Below, one piece after another: positions 18,846-60,680 of a stretch of DNA of 64,000 nt; within the stretch, counting starts at the first letter, position 1, and every line of letters begins with the position of its first letter. This DNA comes from Podarcis cretensis (taxonomy: Eukaryota). The notes beneath the pieces were generated by a model. The model searched no databases, was not told the origin of the DNA, and saw only the letters and a list, made by a program, of their open reading frames with translations. The stretch lies in the NCBI GenBank assembly GCA_951804945.1, contig OX638149.1, positions 66,526,001-66,590,000 on the forward strand, written 5' to 3'. The translations under genes and the position numbers were made by a program.

Positions 18846-45060
<26,215 letters not shown>

Positions 45061-45070
<10 letters not shown>

Positions 45071-45115
45071 GGTGGATTGATGGAGCAAGATCCCACGTGG
45101 CTCGCGGATAAGATT
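45061..45115 (-). CDS. PAX6: PAX6 exon 4 (45 nt 5'UTR plus start codon at 45070; ATG CAG AAC A)
   Basis: CCACC-ATG-CAGAACA followed by a GTAAGT donor; acceptor TTTTATTACTCATAG at 45116-45130. Confidence 0.93.
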
Positions 45116-45520
45116 CTATGAGTAATAAAACAGGCTTTAATCAGGGGAGGGAAGCTCGCGGGCAGGTAGTTGCGCTGCACTGAGTGCCCAGGTCTCCAAG
45201 GCCTCGTTGCTTTCTGCTGGCCTCCCAAATGATGTCAAATATTATATATATATTTATATATATATATATCATGCGAAAACCCTCCCAGCCCCAGAGCCTA
45301 TATAACAACAAACCTGGAAACGTTTCAACCTAGCAAGTCTAGTTCTTTTTAAAAATAAATAAATAAACATAAACCAGCCGTGGCCTTCTCCTCGGCAAAG
45401 TGGCTGTGGCAAGTGTGGGCTCCTGAAGCACCAAGGAAAATGGGTTGGAGTGTGAGAAGTCTTCTAGTGTTGGGGGGGACGGGGGACGGACCGGGAAAGT
45501 AGAAGGTGCTTCCAACTTGC

Positions 45521-45597
45521 CTGATTTATGAGCGGACTCTCCTCTCTGGCAATTTAACGACTCACACATCTGCGTAGCGCTTGTTAAAGTCTTCCCG
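45521..45597 (-). other. PAX6: PAX6 5'UTR exon 3 (77 nt) with a GC donor
   Basis: TAG|CGGGAAGACTTTAACAAGCGCTACGCAGATGTGTGAG...AAATCAG|GCAAGT; sequence and length match my recollection of human exon 3. Confidence 0.88.
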
Positions 45598-48500
45598 CTA
45601 GGATGAGGGGAAAAGTATATTAAAAGTATATTAAGCACTTTTAAATTTGCGTTCCCTAACCTCCTCCCCGCCACCCACCCCAGTCATAGCCGCCTCGCAT
45701 TTGGAGGTGGGGGTGGGAAGAGAAAGGCAGTTCAAAAGATTCAGCAACACACACACACACACACAGAGAGAGAGAGATAGGAAAAGATGCCCAAGTTTTT
45801 TCCAGCACGCCTTACTGGAGCGCCTCCTGCCCATAGGAAGGAATTCTGATCTGTGACACCTTTTGTGTCCGTATTTACAAACAGGACCTCGACTTTGGTT
45901 GGGCTTGGATTCGCTGAAGGGAGCCGGCGCGGCGTCCTCGCGCTGCACTTTGGGGCCAAAGGACTCTTTCTCTGAAAAGAGGTGGCCAGCAGAGTTTGTT
46001 GGCACTTTCTCTCCCTGGGTTCCCCTACCCCCGCTGCAACCTCTCCAGGTTGCTTATGGGCAAATCCTGCTCTCTTGCATGGGGCGTGGGTGGGTGTGCT
46101 GGGGCACTTCTTTCCCTTTTTAAACCACACATGTTTGGGAGCTACTTCACTCTGGTGATTCTTTTCGGGGCACTACTAACCATCCCGAAAAAAACAAAAC
46201 CCGAAGAGGGAGAGAGAAGTGGGGAGGTGGTGGGGGAGAAAGACAGAAATCCACTTATTGTGATTAACTTCTTTTTTGGTCTTTAGATCTTCCCCTTTTT
46301 CACTGTACTGTGACACACGCTGTCTACCTCGCCTCAGTGCTTTAAAAAGTAAGGCCAGGAGGGGGTGAGGGCTGGGAATACAAAGCCTCCAGAAGGCGAA
46401 CAATGGCCTCCATTTTACTCCCCTACCCAAACGCCGAGCGCAAGACCCCAGCCAGGCAGCCTCCTCCGGAACGGGCCGCGGCGCAGCCTCCCAACTCCGC
46501 GTTCCCAACAACCCTCCAACTTACAAAGGAGCGGGTGGGAGGGGGGGCACACAGCGGCCTTCCTCCTCCCTTCTGTAGGGCCCGCCTTGACCCACGCAGC
46601 CTGGCCAGCCCCAAGCCCTGCCTTGGGTTGTTTTTGTTTTTAAACCGGCCTTTTGAGGAATAAGACGAGGAATAATGCAACAACAAAAGAAGTTCTGCAG
46701 TTCTTGATGTTCTGTGTTGCATGTATTTATTTATTGGGTCCCAGCGCTTTCTTTTTAGGTTCCCAGCCTAGCAGGGGGAAAATAGAAAAGTAATTTCTCG
46801 TTATAAATATCTGGAGGTAATTATGTTACTGGTGTGAGTTGTTAGGGGTTGTAAAAAGATACAACAGCGCAGTGGGGTGCTCAATTGGGGTGAGACAATT
46901 ACAATAAAGAACCTATTCAAGAGGTTTTGCTTTAAAAAAAAAGAGGGGGGAGAAGACAGAGAGAGAGAGGAGGTAAAATAATGAAATAGTGGCAGCCTTC
47001 ATTTTATTCGCCCCCCAAACCTCCCTCCTTTATTTTTATTTTTTTTTTGGAAGCTTTAAAAAAATCTCTTCTCTTTCCAGGCTATAATGAATATTAATTT
47101 TATTCTTTCTACCTAGAAAAAGAGGCATCTTCTTCCGGGTCCAAAACGACTCCGGTATGATTTTTAAAAGTGCTTTTTCCCCCAAAGCCATCTACGTTCC
47201 ATTAAAAGGGCGAAAAGATAATCAACACGGAACAAGGACTCCTCTCGCAGCGTGAATGAGGCGCGCGGTGGTAAATATTTACTCCGCTTTGGAGAGGCAC
47301 CTGATTAGCAGCCGAGCCAAGCGCCCTGGACCCTTCTCCGGAAAAAGCCTGTGCCTCCAGTCGCCCAGAGTTTCCAGAAGGCGCCCCTTTAACACACCAA
47401 ACACGTCTGTCGGGACACACGCTTGCACGCAGGACAACCGCTCCAAGACAGAAAGACGCCGAAGCGTGAGAAGCAACTAGAGAGAGAGAGCCTTTTTCGC
47501 CCAGGCGCAGGGGACTGTTATTGTGAACACTTCCCAGTCTCTGCTATACCAACTGGCGAAATGCATTTTAAGGAACTCACTTTGGCACTTATTTGGGGTG
47601 TTAACGAACAAAGACGGCTAGCTGGTTTCAGGCACCAACAAACAAACCGAGGCGTTATTCTGATGAATCCGAGACAGCAAAATTGGAGTAGGGGGGAGTG
47701 AAGAGATAAAAGAGAGAGAGAGAAAGATTTGGGCTTTTGGGCTATTTTAATTACAAGGTGGACTGAGCCCTACAACCACCAGCAAAACCGACCCTTCCTC
47801 CCTTCCCCCACCCGGAAGCGCAATAATGGTGGAGTTTCTCCCTTTGCCAGAAAGTAGCTCCTTTTTACTGAATTTTAAAAATGAAATTATTCACAAAGAG
47901 ATGCAGGTAGGCAGAGAGCAGCCTCGATCGAATTTCCCGGTGAGATTACAAACCCTAAGCGAAACGCAACGTCTCCCTGGTCCCGGCTAGGCCTAATCTG
48001 CAAATTCCTATTTAAATCTCCAAATCTGGATCTAATCTGATCGTCTTTGAGATTTGATCCTCCCCTCCGCTGCAAACATAATTAGCTATTAAGATGACAA
48101 ACGTTTACAATCCCGGGCCGAATAAGCAAAAGATAAACGCTAATCCATTGGCGTGGAGACGTTTGCGAAAGGTCACCGGCTATAAAAATTTATTGCCAAA
48201 GACCACAATTATTATTTTAGGCCTATAAAGACGCTCAGCCTACAGCCATAATGAATGGCTTCACTTTCTGGAAGGAACTGCTCGGTGCTCTCGACAGGGC
48301 CTGAAAAGTTTACTTGTAAGCCTGGTCGCATTAGGAGTTTCTCCCCTCGTATTTTAAACCCCTGATTTGAAGACGCCAGTGGTTTATTATTCCCTCCCCA
48401 CAGTTAGATTAGTTTAAATAGAGTTAAAGAAAACAGACAGAAGTTTATTCTTGCACTCCTGAAGCGATCACTTGGGCAGCCCTTGCCTATGCAAGTTCAC

Positions 48501-49903
48501 TCAGAAATGCTTTATTGTTTCAGTGACGTTTATTCTCACATTAAAGTGTGCGTAAAATCTCAGCCTCAATGTATGGCGGTAGAGGTGGAAACTCTGAAGA
48601 AGAGAGGAGGTGGGGGATGAACTTTTTTGGGGGTTGCCCTGCATTTTCCGTGAGTCTGGGCGAAACTTCACAACATCCACCCAACAAGGAAATGAGATTT
48701 CGAAAATCCAAAATCAAACCAAAACAACAGCAACAAAAAACCCATTTGCTACTTGAAAAGGAAGCAGACAACATTCTCTAGCCTAGAAACTTGTGGAGAA
48801 TGGGGTGGATCGCAGATTCTTTGGAGCGCAAAACTCAGGAGACTTAAACGATCTCGGAGATTTGAGTGAAGTGCTGTAGGGGGGTGGGGGTGGCAAAGAG
48901 CGCAGAGAGAAAAATGTTGTTGTTTTTGTGGCTGTTTTTGTTTAAACAGTTTGTACTTCGAGCCAGGTAGTGATCAAGTTAGAAAGTTCTGCTCATTCTC
49001 AGTCTCGTCGTGGGCAAGTTTGGGGAGATCTCGCGGCTGCTTGATTGAGAGTGACAGTCCTTCAGCTCCGCTCAGACCTTCCCGGATACAACTACTGAGA
49101 CCTGACTTGGCCTAGAATGTGACTCTGTGTGTCGTCGTGCCCCCCCCCCCCCCGCCGGCCCGCGTGTCTCTCTCTTCCCCATTTCCTTAAGGCCAGTTAA
49201 TTTGAGGAGGAAAAGAGATATATAGACATAAATAAAGGGAGAAGCGAGAGTTGCCTAAACGAAAGTCCCTCATCAACACACACGCATAAGCACACACAGC
49301 TTCAGCTTGACGGAGATACAAAGCAACCAGGGAAAAGAAGCGGGGAATAAAGACGCTGAGCTTGGATGGACCCAGCTTCCCAAGAAAGCAAGGGGCCAAG
49401 CAACGCCGTGTGGTCCATAACGCCTCCTTCACAACGACCGCAACAACAAATGCCCCTCATAGGAACCAGGTGCGATGCATTCTCGTGTGTGCGCGCGCGC
49501 TCAGATGATCCCTACAGCTTTGGCCGTCCCTATCGCACTGTGCCAAACGGAGCAAGCCTTTCGTGGGGCTCTGTCTAGCAGAAAGGCCGGGCGAGTCTGC
49601 TGCTGTTGCTATCCAAAGAGAGAGAGAGAGAGAGAGAGATGCTTTCCCAGAAAACAGGGGCGGGGGTCGGTCCATGAAGGAGGAAGAGGAGGAAAAAGAA
49701 GAGGAGGAGAAAGAAGGCTGGAGCGAAAAGGACAAAGTTTGGAAGCCTTTGAGACTGGCATCTCGCTTAAGATCCTTTCCCGGAATGTAAGAAATGGTGT
49801 GTATGTGAGCGAAACGGGGGGGGGGGGGAGAGAGGGGGGGAGGGAGAGACCTGTCTAAATATTAAAATGAACTGAAGCGAGGAGAAGAAACGAGCAGACT
49901 CAC

Positions 49904-50049
49904 CTTTCTGAGGCATCCTGTCTTGTTGTCAAAGCTCCTGTCAATAGTTTTAAAAAGCGCCCCTGATTTGAAATGATGGTGCCTTAAAAAGGGTTGCCAG
50001 TAAAAGAGTTTTTCTCCACTGAAGCTGCTGGTTGTGTGATCTTGAGTTC
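49904..50049 (-). other. PAX6: PAX6 5'UTR exon 2
   Basis: CCTTCCCAG acceptor; internal GGAGAAAAACTCT, CATTTCAAA and TTGACAGGAGCTTTGACAAC resemble mammalian exon 2; ends GGATGCCTCAGAAAG|GTGAGT. Confidence 0.88.
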
Positions 50050-58080: not shown

Positions 58081-60360
58081 AAGTGGACCCCCCCTTTTTT
58101 TTTTGATGCCAAAGCACCTTAAGGGATTTGGTGTAGGAGCTGAGGGGCTGGGAAGGCGAAGTCTTACAGCTTGATCCAGGAGAGTGAATGGAAAAGAGAG
58201 AGAAAGAGAGAGGGAGGGAGGGAGGGAGGGGAGAGCCATTATCCTACTAATCCCTTTCTTTCTAATTAAGTACAAAGAAGAAGAAGGAGAAGGAAGAATC
58301 TAAAACACAATTTACCTGCCTTGGGCTGCAATCCTAAGCGCCCTCCTATTTCCAGCTGCTTGAATTTACTCCCAAGCAACCGTGCGCGCAGAATACCGAG
58401 TTTTACTTCTCAGGAAGTGCGGTGCGGACTTCTCCCGGCGCAACTCAAGCTCTGTTTACTCACGAGTAAGTCCAATCGGTTGAAACAGAACTTTTCCCTA
58501 CAAATAATGGGTGCCTAAGATTGGAGTTTCGATTGTGCGGCTGAAGTTGCGTTTCTGAACCCAAATGCACCGTACAATTCCCCTTGCTTTCTCTTCCACT
58601 AACAAACCAACCATCCAGAGTTAAGCAAAAACAAAAACACAACGAGAGGCTCCACCAGGCACCAACCAGTGTATTTTCGCACACCTTTTCAGACGTTCGA
58701 GCAACCTAATGGAAAAGAAAACCATCACCACGCCGCAACCTCAAAGGAAGTTAAACGCGCGGATCCAGGAAGCAGTTCCCAAAGCAGAAAGTTTTAGAGA
58801 CAGTTAACCTGACGGCAACAGATGACAGGCGCAACAGAAAAACAGCAATCTCTTCTCCCTCTCTATACCCCTTATAATACACCGACTGCATTTTATGCAG
58901 ACCAGGAATACTTAGCAGTATACTTTTACATACAGCCTAGCATTAAACACATCACCTGGAAACAAATCCTATGGATTTCTAAGGGACTGCCTTGAAAACA
59001 CCGACGTTTCCGGCTAAGGCCCCAAAGCTCCTTTACTCTGGAGTAAGTCTTACTGGGCCGATTTACCTGTGCTTAGAAAGGAACGTCAGTTTTAACTCCA
59101 ACGGAAGACGTATCGATTTCGGCTGAAGTGGTTTGTGGATCGGGCGCGAAAAAGCGCGCTTCGCAGGTTGCCTTAGTAAAGGATTCTTTACCCCCTCCCG
59201 CTCACTCTTTCCTTGGTACAGCTTCAGTCTGGGAACAATGATCTAGCCGAGACATTACCTTGCTGGAAACGTGGGGACACCCCAGAGTTGGTGGGTGCCC
59301 CAATGGACAGCCCCTCCCGGCTCGCCTAAGCGCAGAAGTCGCCGCGAGCAGAGCCATCCAGGACGGGGAGAGAGGGGTGTGGATATGCGCCGGTTCACAA
59401 ACAGACCCCAGTTGGCAAGTGGTTACCAGGCACGTGAGTGAACTGACCGGAGAGTGGAGCAGGACTCCAGGTCAGACTGGGGGAAGGAAAAAACAAAAAA
59501 CCAGCCCCGAACTCCGCAAAACTCCGAAAGATCCACCGGACCCGAGGATCTGTCTGCGCCAAACGCCCCCGACGTCTCTGCGTTGCAGAGTCCCTTCTGA
59601 AGTGCCCAGAAGCTCAAGGCGAGCCGGGCGTGCGTAATCCGAAGCCCCTTTTCGTTCTACCTCAGTGGAAATCGTTAATTATTAGGTCTTCCCAAGGAAA
59701 GCTCAAATCACACGGTCTGGGGATTGAAAATGCTACCCAAGTATGCGAGCCACATTCTTTCGTTCCCTTGCCTGAACTTCGGGAGCGCCCTAGCGAGGGC
59801 TGGAGGCCGTGGGCGAGGTCAAGGACCAACTTCTTCCTCCTCTCTCAACACCCCCCCGCGCACCCACCCCCATGCCTCTCCCCACACATCCCCAAACCGG
59901 TGGCAGCGAGCACATGAGCCGGGTTTTCCATACAAGGCGCCTCGGTTGTCCAAGCGGGGAGAGGTCAGAGCTGCTCCAAGCCTCGCGTCTGCCTAGCCAC
60001 GCCAAAGTCCAACTCTCTGCCCCGCGCCCTCTTCCTTCCTCCCACCTGTTGGCACTGCGCTTTCTGTGCGCGCCCCGTCGAACCTGGCAGTTGCTAGCGT
60101 GATCCCCTTTTATGCCGCTTGTAATTAACACTCCGCAAAAGGCTGAGAGAGATGGGAGGGGGGCGGAAATAAGAGGGTTTTTTTAAAAAAAAAAAATCCT
60201 GGGCTTGGTAATGGAAACGAGGAGGTCAGAGAGAGAGAAAGAACGGGAAAGAAAGGAAGGAAGAAATCTAGAGAAGGGGAGAAACAAACGCAGCGGCAAT
60301 TGTTTCAGGAGGAATCCGGCAACTCCCCCCGACCCTGGATAAAGAGCATCAAATGTTTAC

Positions 60361-60506
60361 CTGTTAGAGAGAGGGCAGGCAGAGGCTCATGATCCGCGGG
60401 TTCCCAATTGCGCCTCTGAGAGTCGGTAACTGGCAGGTTTGATCGCCAATTTCTACATAAGAATCTGCCACACAGTTTAAATGTCAACGACAATAAAAAA
60501 GAGGGT
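60361..60506 (-). other. PAX6: PAX6 exon 0 (P0-derived; 5' end approximate)
   Basis: ACCCTCTTTTTTATTGTCGTTGACATTTAAACT... resembles the start of mammalian exon 0; ends AACAG|GTAAAC. Confidence 0.8.
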
Positions 60507-60680
60507 GCCTGGCTTTGCACTAACTTTCCCTTAATATCAGCGCCAGCGCCTCTCCCATTGGCTGGGCTGCCCCGGTGACGTCACGGCGGACAGTAGTTAG
60601 AGCTGAGCTCATAAGAAATTTTAGACAACAAGAAGCTCACCGGGGCCGGGAGATAATTCACCTTCCCGTGACCACTGGAG
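60507..60680 (-). promoter_or_regulatory. PAX6 P0 promoter
   Basis: TATA-like ATATTAA (60531-60537) about 25-30 nt above exon 0, CCAAT (60557-60561), and a perfect CRE palindrome GTGACGTCAC (60575-60584). Confidence 0.8.

Follow-up and report, generated by a model that had tools for sequence, protein, structure and literature searches.

Origin and probable role of an upstream ATG in exon 2 of the Pax6 gene of the lizard Podarcis cretensis

The Pax6 locus of Podarcis cretensis raises the question of what an ATG located in exon 2, well upstream of the main start codon, might represent: the remnant of a coding N-terminus, a regulatory upstream open reading frame (uORF) or an alternative start. 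In the assembly stretch analyzed in this work (64,000 nt, hereafter the window), Pax6 exons 2 to 5 all lie on the minus strand, with the following features.

60359..60558, minus strand: P0-type upstream exon blocks, included in the Podarcis model P0216, in which exon 2 is spliced to exon 4
49904..50049, minus strand: Pax6 exon 2, 146 nt, phase-1 donor; its last 13 nt begin with the upstream ATG
49914..49916, minus strand: ATG 1, homologue of the ATG that begins the 19-aa extension in ray-finned fish
45521..45597, minus strand: Pax6 exon 3, 77 nt, GC donor
45584..45586, minus strand: TAA closing an 8-aa uORF, without listed difference in runs X5 or X13
45567..45569, minus strand: ATG 2 in exon 3, 14 nt past the TAA and in a weak context; the main ATG follows 94 nt later
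45061..45115, minus strand: Pax6 exon 4, with a 45-nt leader and the main ATG at 45070
38944..39074, minus strand: Pax6 exon 5 (paired domain), holding a +1-frame TGA at 38965-38963

The frame opened by ATG 1

Residues 36-83 of the Podarcis lilfordi model P0216 map exactly onto 50047-49904, in exon 2. The donor following 49904 (GTGAGT) agrees with the consensus at 9/9 positions and lies 13 nt from ATG 1, whose context has A at -3 and C at +4 (purine-poor at +4). When exon 2 is joined to exon 4, ATG 1 and the main ATG are 58 nt apart (13+45), and the 2-4-5 splice yields a +1 frame of 59 codons that terminates at the TGA of exon 5. The preliminary description of this locus had placed the ATG at 49916, the spacing at 58 nt, the frame at 59 aa and the stop at 38963-38965; recomputation returned the same values, and the exon 4 acceptor that it had assumed (first base 45115) is the one used in P0216. 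Among the 12 AG sites listed from 45260 to the main ATG and the six GT donors listed near exon 2, there was no acceptor giving an open, in-frame path to the ATG. A DNA search of the lizard's own genome found the exon 3-4 region in single copy, together with 10 short matches (30-37 nt).

If the additional base were an assembly error, a 57-nt extension would be intact. A search for RNA runs listed none with this sequence, a result that says nothing about expression. Of the 13 runs listed, four were compared with 44950-46000, a range that does not reach exon 2; X1 gave no contig, and the contigs of the other three could be aligned. The contig of run X9, which may be the source sample, showed neither differing letters nor gaps over 44984-45235; run X13, from a different study and organism, had three differing letters and no gaps; run X5, less than 90% alike, had no gaps over 45018-45105. 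The unaligned end of the X5 contig shows an AG acceptor 10 nt beyond 45105, so that its leader is 45 nt long too; although guessed to be RNA, this run reads across an intron, as DNA would. Exon 3 is likewise free of gaps in X5, X9 and X13, and P0216 reads 15 whole codons through the leader. The preliminary description had asked for a check of 45071-45115 for a 1-bp error; as no indel appears in any of the three runs, the 58-nt spacing is not an assembly error, an explanation for which nothing spoke, which we count as refuted and whose residual probability is negligible.

A different reading of the 2-4 mRNA is that it codes from further upstream, with a 98-residue N-terminal extension as in P. 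lilfordi P0216. In the main frame of this splice, exon 2 reads through without a stop, and P0216 maps onto the window in exact blocks. However, among three candidates the 48-residue exon-2 reading matched only P0216 itself (a blank being weak evidence), the sturgeon protein P0247 matches its last 16 residues and 0/10 before those, and P0216 has the appearance of a longest-ORF call. A coding role of this kind seems to us very improbable.

Homology with the ray-finned-fish extension and its polarity

A 19-residue Pax6 extension occurs in 86 of the 324 database proteins examined, in 31 distinct forms, and the MPQKE..RATW-type N-terminus that the preliminary description attributed to fish Pax6 exists. 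The ray-finned-fish extension (PMC3554528, citing Nornes 1998, Miles 1998 and Lakowski 2007) starts at the same ATG as the lizard frame, is interrupted by an intron at an identical position (codon 5) and has residues that can be recognized as the same up to W-D/E; the two differ in that the fish extension covers 57 nt, or 19 codons sharing the frame of the exon 4 ATG, whereas the lizard one covers 58 nt, with no gap in the three runs, and is out of frame. Residue identity with the lizard frame ranges from 4 to 11 out of 19, the best case being 11 of the first 13 (P0107). The RATW codons correspond to 45104-45093, in the +1 frame of the exon 4 leader, and the extra base relative to fish falls within 45090-45071, with the best fit at 45081-45077. 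In a chance test over the six frames of the window, the score of the eight exon-4 codons after the split codon was matched at 10 of 127,954 positions (itself included), and that of the four exon-2 codons was reached at 1 of 127,978. The homology of the lizard exon-2 frame to the sturgeon and teleost 19-aa extension is therefore real.

A motif search of the 64-kb window for the small extra exon of fish gave no match; the +1 reading of exon 5, compared with all protein representatives, retrieved only P0324, an intron-flanked genomic call without the exon-2 start; and the ESM Atlas search returned only paired-box clusters, below 0.9. The palindrome CCACGTGG (45093-45100), which overlaps the RATW codons, was considered as a factor-binding site that might explain them and is no more than a lead: it occurs twice in the window, and the mammal and salamander models suggest that it was not retained.

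It had been proposed that the peptide kept a recognizable identity. Taking this as a sign of function is not well supported: of the flanking non-coding triplets upstream of ATG 1, 7/11 are alike in sturgeon P0247 and the lizard, while lizard and songbird have only 4/9 residues in common over the RATW stretch. The exon-4 leader is a multiple of three in those tetrapod models whose reading crosses it (P0216, P0222, P0307 and P0221 with 15 codons, P0199, P0101 and P0389 with 17, the junctions being set by alignment to the lizard), and the +1 offset persists in frog, salamander, lizard, songbird and mammal models. The two leader changes listed for X5 (45072 and 45075, from a list holding 4 of the 11 differences of that piece) both fall at third positions of the +1 frame, which might be a faint hint of peptide constraint. 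The likeness of the RATW codons is likely to reflect the slow evolution, at the DNA level, of the whole leader. Against a leader that never coded, the match with mormyrid fish, at 11/13 residues, is high for such DNA.

The preliminary description also held that an ancestral coding N-terminus had turned into a uORF. Its homology and +1 frame stand; its polarity does not agree with the protein models, on which, rather than on DNA, this comparison is based. The extension is present in 52/93 ray-finned-fish models (a proportion inflated by several clusters having been chosen via extension-bearing representatives), in 0/7 outgroup-fish models and in 0/71 tetrapod ones; all seven models of shark, skate, coelacanth and lungfish (five genera) start at the exon 4 ATG. 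As 27/93 ray-finned-fish models start there likewise, an extension could be missed in the outgroup models. In PMC3554528 the extension is termed a teleost feature, and the exon structure of the elephant shark equals the human one; its occurrence in sturgeons and paddlefish, besides teleosts, implies that it is older than teleosts, a point which that paper did not state. Because no outgroup-fish or tetrapod model has the extension, the in-frame state is likely to have been gained in the ray-finned-fish stem via the loss of one base, and the term "remnant" of an ancestral coding N-terminus appears doubtful.

The opposite polarity, to which we assign a low probability, would require a coding extension already present in the ancestor of jawed vertebrates or of bony fish, the gain of one base in tetrapods, and a regulated skipping of exon 3 that now shuts off Pax6 translation. 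It would fit the 11/13 homology, an indel localized past the W-D codons, the exon 2-4 junction of one Podarcis gene model (P0216), the offset kept from frog to mammal and the third-position changes of X5. However, the seven outgroup-fish models lacking the extension would demand two losses, and the peptide drifts among tetrapods.

Exon 3 and the comparison with the human PAX6 uORF

When exon 3 is included, ATG 1 is in frame with the coding sequence (135 nt), yet its frame stops after eight codons. Without any exon skipping, the +1 overlapping frame can also be entered at ATG 2, from which it runs for 71 aa; no difference is listed for ATG 2 in X5, and the songbird model P0305 begins at its homologue, with the first 7/7 residues identical. 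The 8-aa uORF, ATG 2 and the in-frame exon 2-5 route discussed below were absent from the preliminary description.

According to the passages of PMC7617937 and PMC12822670 that deal with human PAX6, a short uORF begins in exon 2 and terminates within exon 3, whose skipping generates a repressive overlapping ORF, a mechanism of aniridia; the work is that of Filatova et al. 2021 (PMID 34174135), as cited in passages of these two papers and of PMC11062406 and PMC9943669. The lizard gene has the same arrangement: its uORF begins in exon 2 (ATG 49916, eight codons), crosses into exon 3 and ends there (TAA 45586-45584), and skipping leads to an out-of-frame overlap of 59 aa. The leader measures 45 nt in the lizard and 51 nt in mammal models, with equal phase. 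The human data concern disease alleles, and the human passages make no mention of the fish extension, of ATG 2 or of an exon 2-5 route.

On this analogy, the reading that we favor, with moderate confidence, is that ATG 1 is the lizard counterpart of the uORF known from human PAX6 and tunes Pax6 output rather than encoding a useful peptide; this would also cover the eight-codon frame with exon 3, the 59-codon overlap without it and the ray-finned-fish gain. We infer that the normal mRNA joins exons 2, 3 and 4. On it, ribosomes initiating at ATG 1 would terminate after eight codons, pass the weak ATG 2, only 14 nt further on, and reinitiate at the main ATG, 108 nt past the uORF stop. If exon 3 were skipped, the uORF stop would be lost and Pax6 repressed, as in the human aniridia alleles.

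This arrangement recalls ATF4-type leaders, in which a short first uORF is followed by a second, out-of-frame uORF overlapping the coding sequence, after a gap long enough for reinitiation. The lizard leader likewise has a short uORF (8 aa) and then an out-of-frame overlapping one (71 aa, from ATG 45569), but the gap between them (14 nt) is too short for reinitiation at the second; given this gap and the weak context of ATG 2, ribosomes would by default pass over the second uORF. We know of no stress control of the lizard Pax6 leader.

The idea that exon 3 skipping acts as a translational switch is retained in part. The repressive overlapping ORF corresponds to the one published for human PAX6 (in the passages of PMC7617937 and PMC12822670 referred to above); a natural switch is not well supported: the exon 2-4 junction appears in one gene model (P0216) but not in the aligned contigs, whose range does not reach exon 2, and in the human minigenes of PMC9934858 exon 3 is included from the wild type and skipped from the allele of a patient. 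The same data, with human skipping reported as pathogenic, weigh against a regulated shut-off of an ancestral coding extension, and such a switch would not be a clean one, since ATG 2 opens the +1 frame without skipping. We consider it more likely that the lizard form lacking exon 3 is minor or aberrant than that it reflects regulated switching.

A possible exon 2-5 route and its implications

A further possibility is that ATG 1 was kept mainly as an alternative in-frame start via an exon 2-5 splice, the uORF being a side effect; the product would be full-length Pax6 in which four exon-2 residues and a Gly replace the usual first four. This splice is open and in frame within the window, and the phase-1 donor, 13 nt on from ATG 1, agrees fully with the consensus. 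Seven models start exactly in this way, namely those of Acipenser ruthenus (P0239, P0241), Coregonus (P0291), Anguilla (P0308) and the birds Buteo (P0256), Calypte (P0262) and Cinclus (P0263); an ENA protein with a similar start (P0072) and a butterfly model with a similar motif near the paired box (P0099) are additional leads. However, the seven models are automated predictions, and only 3/71 tetrapod models have this start, all of them from birds, with none among the squamate and mammal models examined. Moreover, a 4.25-kb deletion that takes out exons 3 and 4 in humans nevertheless causes aniridia, according to the relevant passages of PMC8491394, so that the 2-5 route does not rescue the lost allele, although the deletion removes intronic DNA too. 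As the main reason for the retention of ATG 1, this route is possible but rather unlikely. It could represent an old start of Pax6, and it is compatible with the uORF reading that we favor.

A more speculative proposal, which we consider improbable, is that the 13 coding bases of exon 2 form an ancient start cassette with three splice-chosen outputs, tuning the Pax6 dose of tetrapods. Spliced to exon 3, the cassette would give a short permissive uORF that also shields ATG 2. Joining it to exon 4 would produce the repressive overlapping frame, and joining it to exon 5 would yield full-length Pax6 with a different N-terminus. Ray-finned fish would have made the repressive output a coding extension by means of one base.

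The regulatory mechanism considered here is already known; the new part is the evolutionary link, which is modest and which older literature may already state. The dosage of Pax6 is critical, and aniridia is known to result from variants of the 5'UTR in the region of exon 3. Linking the start of the human uORF to the fish coding extension would provide an evolutionary account of this uORF, and the same link calls for caution, in that zebrafish leaders do not model the human uORF. If the exon 2-5 isoform or ATG 2 were used in mammals, this would affect the interpretation of exon 2-4 variants.

Exon layout and upstream reading frames

Pax6 lies on the minus strand of the window, its exon 3-4 region being single copy in a DNA search of the lizard's own genome, and 13 blocks of the window match a protein model of Podarcis lilfordi, P0216, exactly, which places the DNA in a lacertid near Podarcis.

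Pax6 exons carrying or adjoining the leader (window positions)
50049-49904, minus strand: exon 2
45597-45521, minus strand: exon 3, 77 nt, with a GC donor
45115-45061, minus strand: exon 4, containing the main ATG (45070)
39074-38944, minus strand: exon 5

The preliminary description had placed the upstream start of exon 2 (ATG 1, 49916) one base out of register with the main ATG upon skipping of exon 3, and all its numbers were correct: the recomputed distance between the two ATGs is 58 nt (13 nt of exon 2 plus 45 nt of exon 4), and joining exons 2, 4, and 5 leaves 59 codons open up to the TGA at 38965-38963. The extra base is real and not a 1-bp assembly error. Of the four sequencing runs compared over the leader, one (X1) gave no contig there; X9, which may derive from the source sample and is not independent, showed 0 differences and 0 gaps over 44984-45235, and 0 gaps were also found in X13, from another study, and in X5, which is less than 90% alike and has its acceptor at the same distance.

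When exon 3 is included, ATG 1 lies 135 nt from the coding sequence and in frame with it, and its reading frame stops after 8 codons (TAA, 45586-45584). A second upstream start in exon 3 (ATG 2, 45569-45567, minus strand), 14 nt past this TAA and 94 nt upstream of the main ATG, opens the same +1 overlapping frame for 71 codons and has no listed change in X5. The overlapping frame proposed on exon 3 skipping does exist, but skipping is not required to open it. The songbird model P0305 begins at an ATG homologous to ATG 2 and follows the +1 frame through exon 4 (21/34 residues identical), an intron-4 exon then bringing it back in frame with exon 5. In the lizard, an intron-4 exon at 40428-40303 (minus strand), adjoining an N stretch, is coding in the Podarcis muralis model P0280, and comparable readings occur in horse, bat, and songbird models.

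Exon 2 (49904) spliced directly to exon 5 (39074), both on the minus strand, is in frame and open, giving a full-length Pax6 from ATG 1. This start is present in seven named, automated models (two sturgeon, whitefish, eel, and three bird models); the ENA protein P0072 has a start resembling it. In humans, deletion of exons 3 and 4 is reported in extracts of PMC8491394 to cause aniridia, which implies that the output of this route is limited there.

Relationship with the fish N-terminal extension

The 19-residue extension of ray-finned-fish Pax6, cited in the preliminary description, is real and homologous to the lizard +1 frame. It was recovered from teleosts, sturgeons, and paddlefish by searches using exon 5 (best 120 of 1339 matches) or the N-terminal 40 residues of a cod Pax6b (best 120 of 562), and by three cluster look-ups; an M-P start with W at position 12 occurs in 91/324 proteins, with the main Met at position 20 in 86. 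The 31 distinct forms share 4-11/19 residues with the lizard frame, with a maximum of 11 of the first 13 (P0107), and their profile ranks the lizard exon-2 codons first of 127,978 window positions and places those of exon 4 within the ten best of 127,954. For the extra base, the best position is 45081-45077, within a plateau at 45090-45071. Moreover, the fish models that swap first exons (P0140, P0148, P0163, P0179, P0183, and P0184) diverge at residue 5, so that the fish intron falls at the site of the lizard 2-4 junction. An E-box-like palindrome, CCACGTGG, lies beneath the A-T-W codons (45093-45100), with only one further copy within the window (63835).

Homology leaves the polarity to be considered, since the lizard frame had been regarded as the remnant of an ancestral coding N-terminus. 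Models were classed by their first residues and taxa assigned by hand from names, setting aside rows without an organism name, invertebrates, and most search-ranked teleost rows. Among 93 ray-finned models, 52 carry the extension (a share inflated by the choice of clusters), 4 the exon 2-5 start, 27 an exon 4 start, and 10 are other or partial; the corresponding figures for 71 tetrapod models are 0, 3, 42, and 26. Sawshark, skate, white shark, coelacanth, and lungfish start in exon 4 in 7/7 models. On these protein models, a single gain in the ray-finned stem is simpler than two losses, and the evidence leans against the remnant reading, leaving its homology part in place. According to extracts of PMC3554528, the tetrapod start is strictly in exon 4, the extension is teleost-specific, and the elephant shark exon structure equals the human one, the "all fish" wording of a legend in the same source being ambiguous; PMC6925180, likewise in extract, describes two lamprey Pax6 genes with few residues ahead of the paired domain.

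Exon 3 skipping and conservation of the leader

Exon 3 inclusion or skipping had also been proposed as a translational switch. A natural 2-4 junction is indicated solely by the P0216 gene model, which carries it; on the other hand, wild-type human minigenes include exon 3 (PMC9934858, in extract), and skipping is tied to disease. In humans, the extracts of PMC7617937 and PMC12822670 describe loss of the uORF stop upon skipping, giving an overlapping ORF and less translation, as a proposed aniridia mechanism, which is also found in those of PMC11062406, PMC7615962, PMC9943669, and PMC11998461; the extracts of PMC11936725, PMC4488758, PMC10771650, and PMC2242813 contributed nothing further. The exon 3 donor (45520-45519, minus strand) is GC, not GT, with 8/9 consensus positions, and could make skipping easier. 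Skipping is likely to be rare.

The frames and positions are read directly from the DNA, and from them we infer how translation, reinitiation, and isoform shares might combine. The usual mRNA would be 2-3-4. On it, a fraction of ribosomes would initiate at ATG 1 and terminate 8 codons later; they would then bypass ATG 2, whose context is weak, and resume translation at the main ATG. The effect would be a mild damping of Pax6, and exon 3 skipping would repress it strongly.

The signs that peptide identity has been kept are mixed. The leader changes listed in X5 both fall at third positions of the +1 frame, which counts toward the peptide being kept; the three residues after the junction are altered in X5, as read from a contig's loose end. 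Lizard and songbird share only 4/9 residues over the RATW stretch of exon 4, and in the sturgeon model P0247 exon 2 is translated in a different frame, with 7/11 triplets directly upstream of ATG 1 translating as in the lizard, so that non-coding leader DNA is conserved too. Leader length is better preserved than the peptide: the exon-4 leader is 15 codons long in frog, salamander, lizard, and a Logan protein and 17 in mammal-type models, a difference of one in-frame indel, to be expected one time in three by chance alone. Some mammal-type models (P0032, P0040, P0101, P0389, P0199, and P0200) have an in-frame exon 3 ATG adding 27-32 residues, a further N-terminal extension drawn independently from this leader. 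In seven Logan proteins (P0221 and P0372-P0377), exons 3 and 4 are open in the main frame, and the exon 3 stop seems to be absent from that frame in their organism.

The uORF mechanism is already in print, and so is the fish extension. The literature searched states neither that the two are one element, one base apart, nor an exon 2-5 start, both being weak negatives given that the likeliest sources (Lakowski 2007, Miles 1998, and Filatova 2021, reportedly the primary paper on the human PAX6 uORF mechanism) and Nornes 1998 lay outside its scope. The frame-shifted upstream start of the lizard Pax6 is real and mostly explained, and two leads remain.
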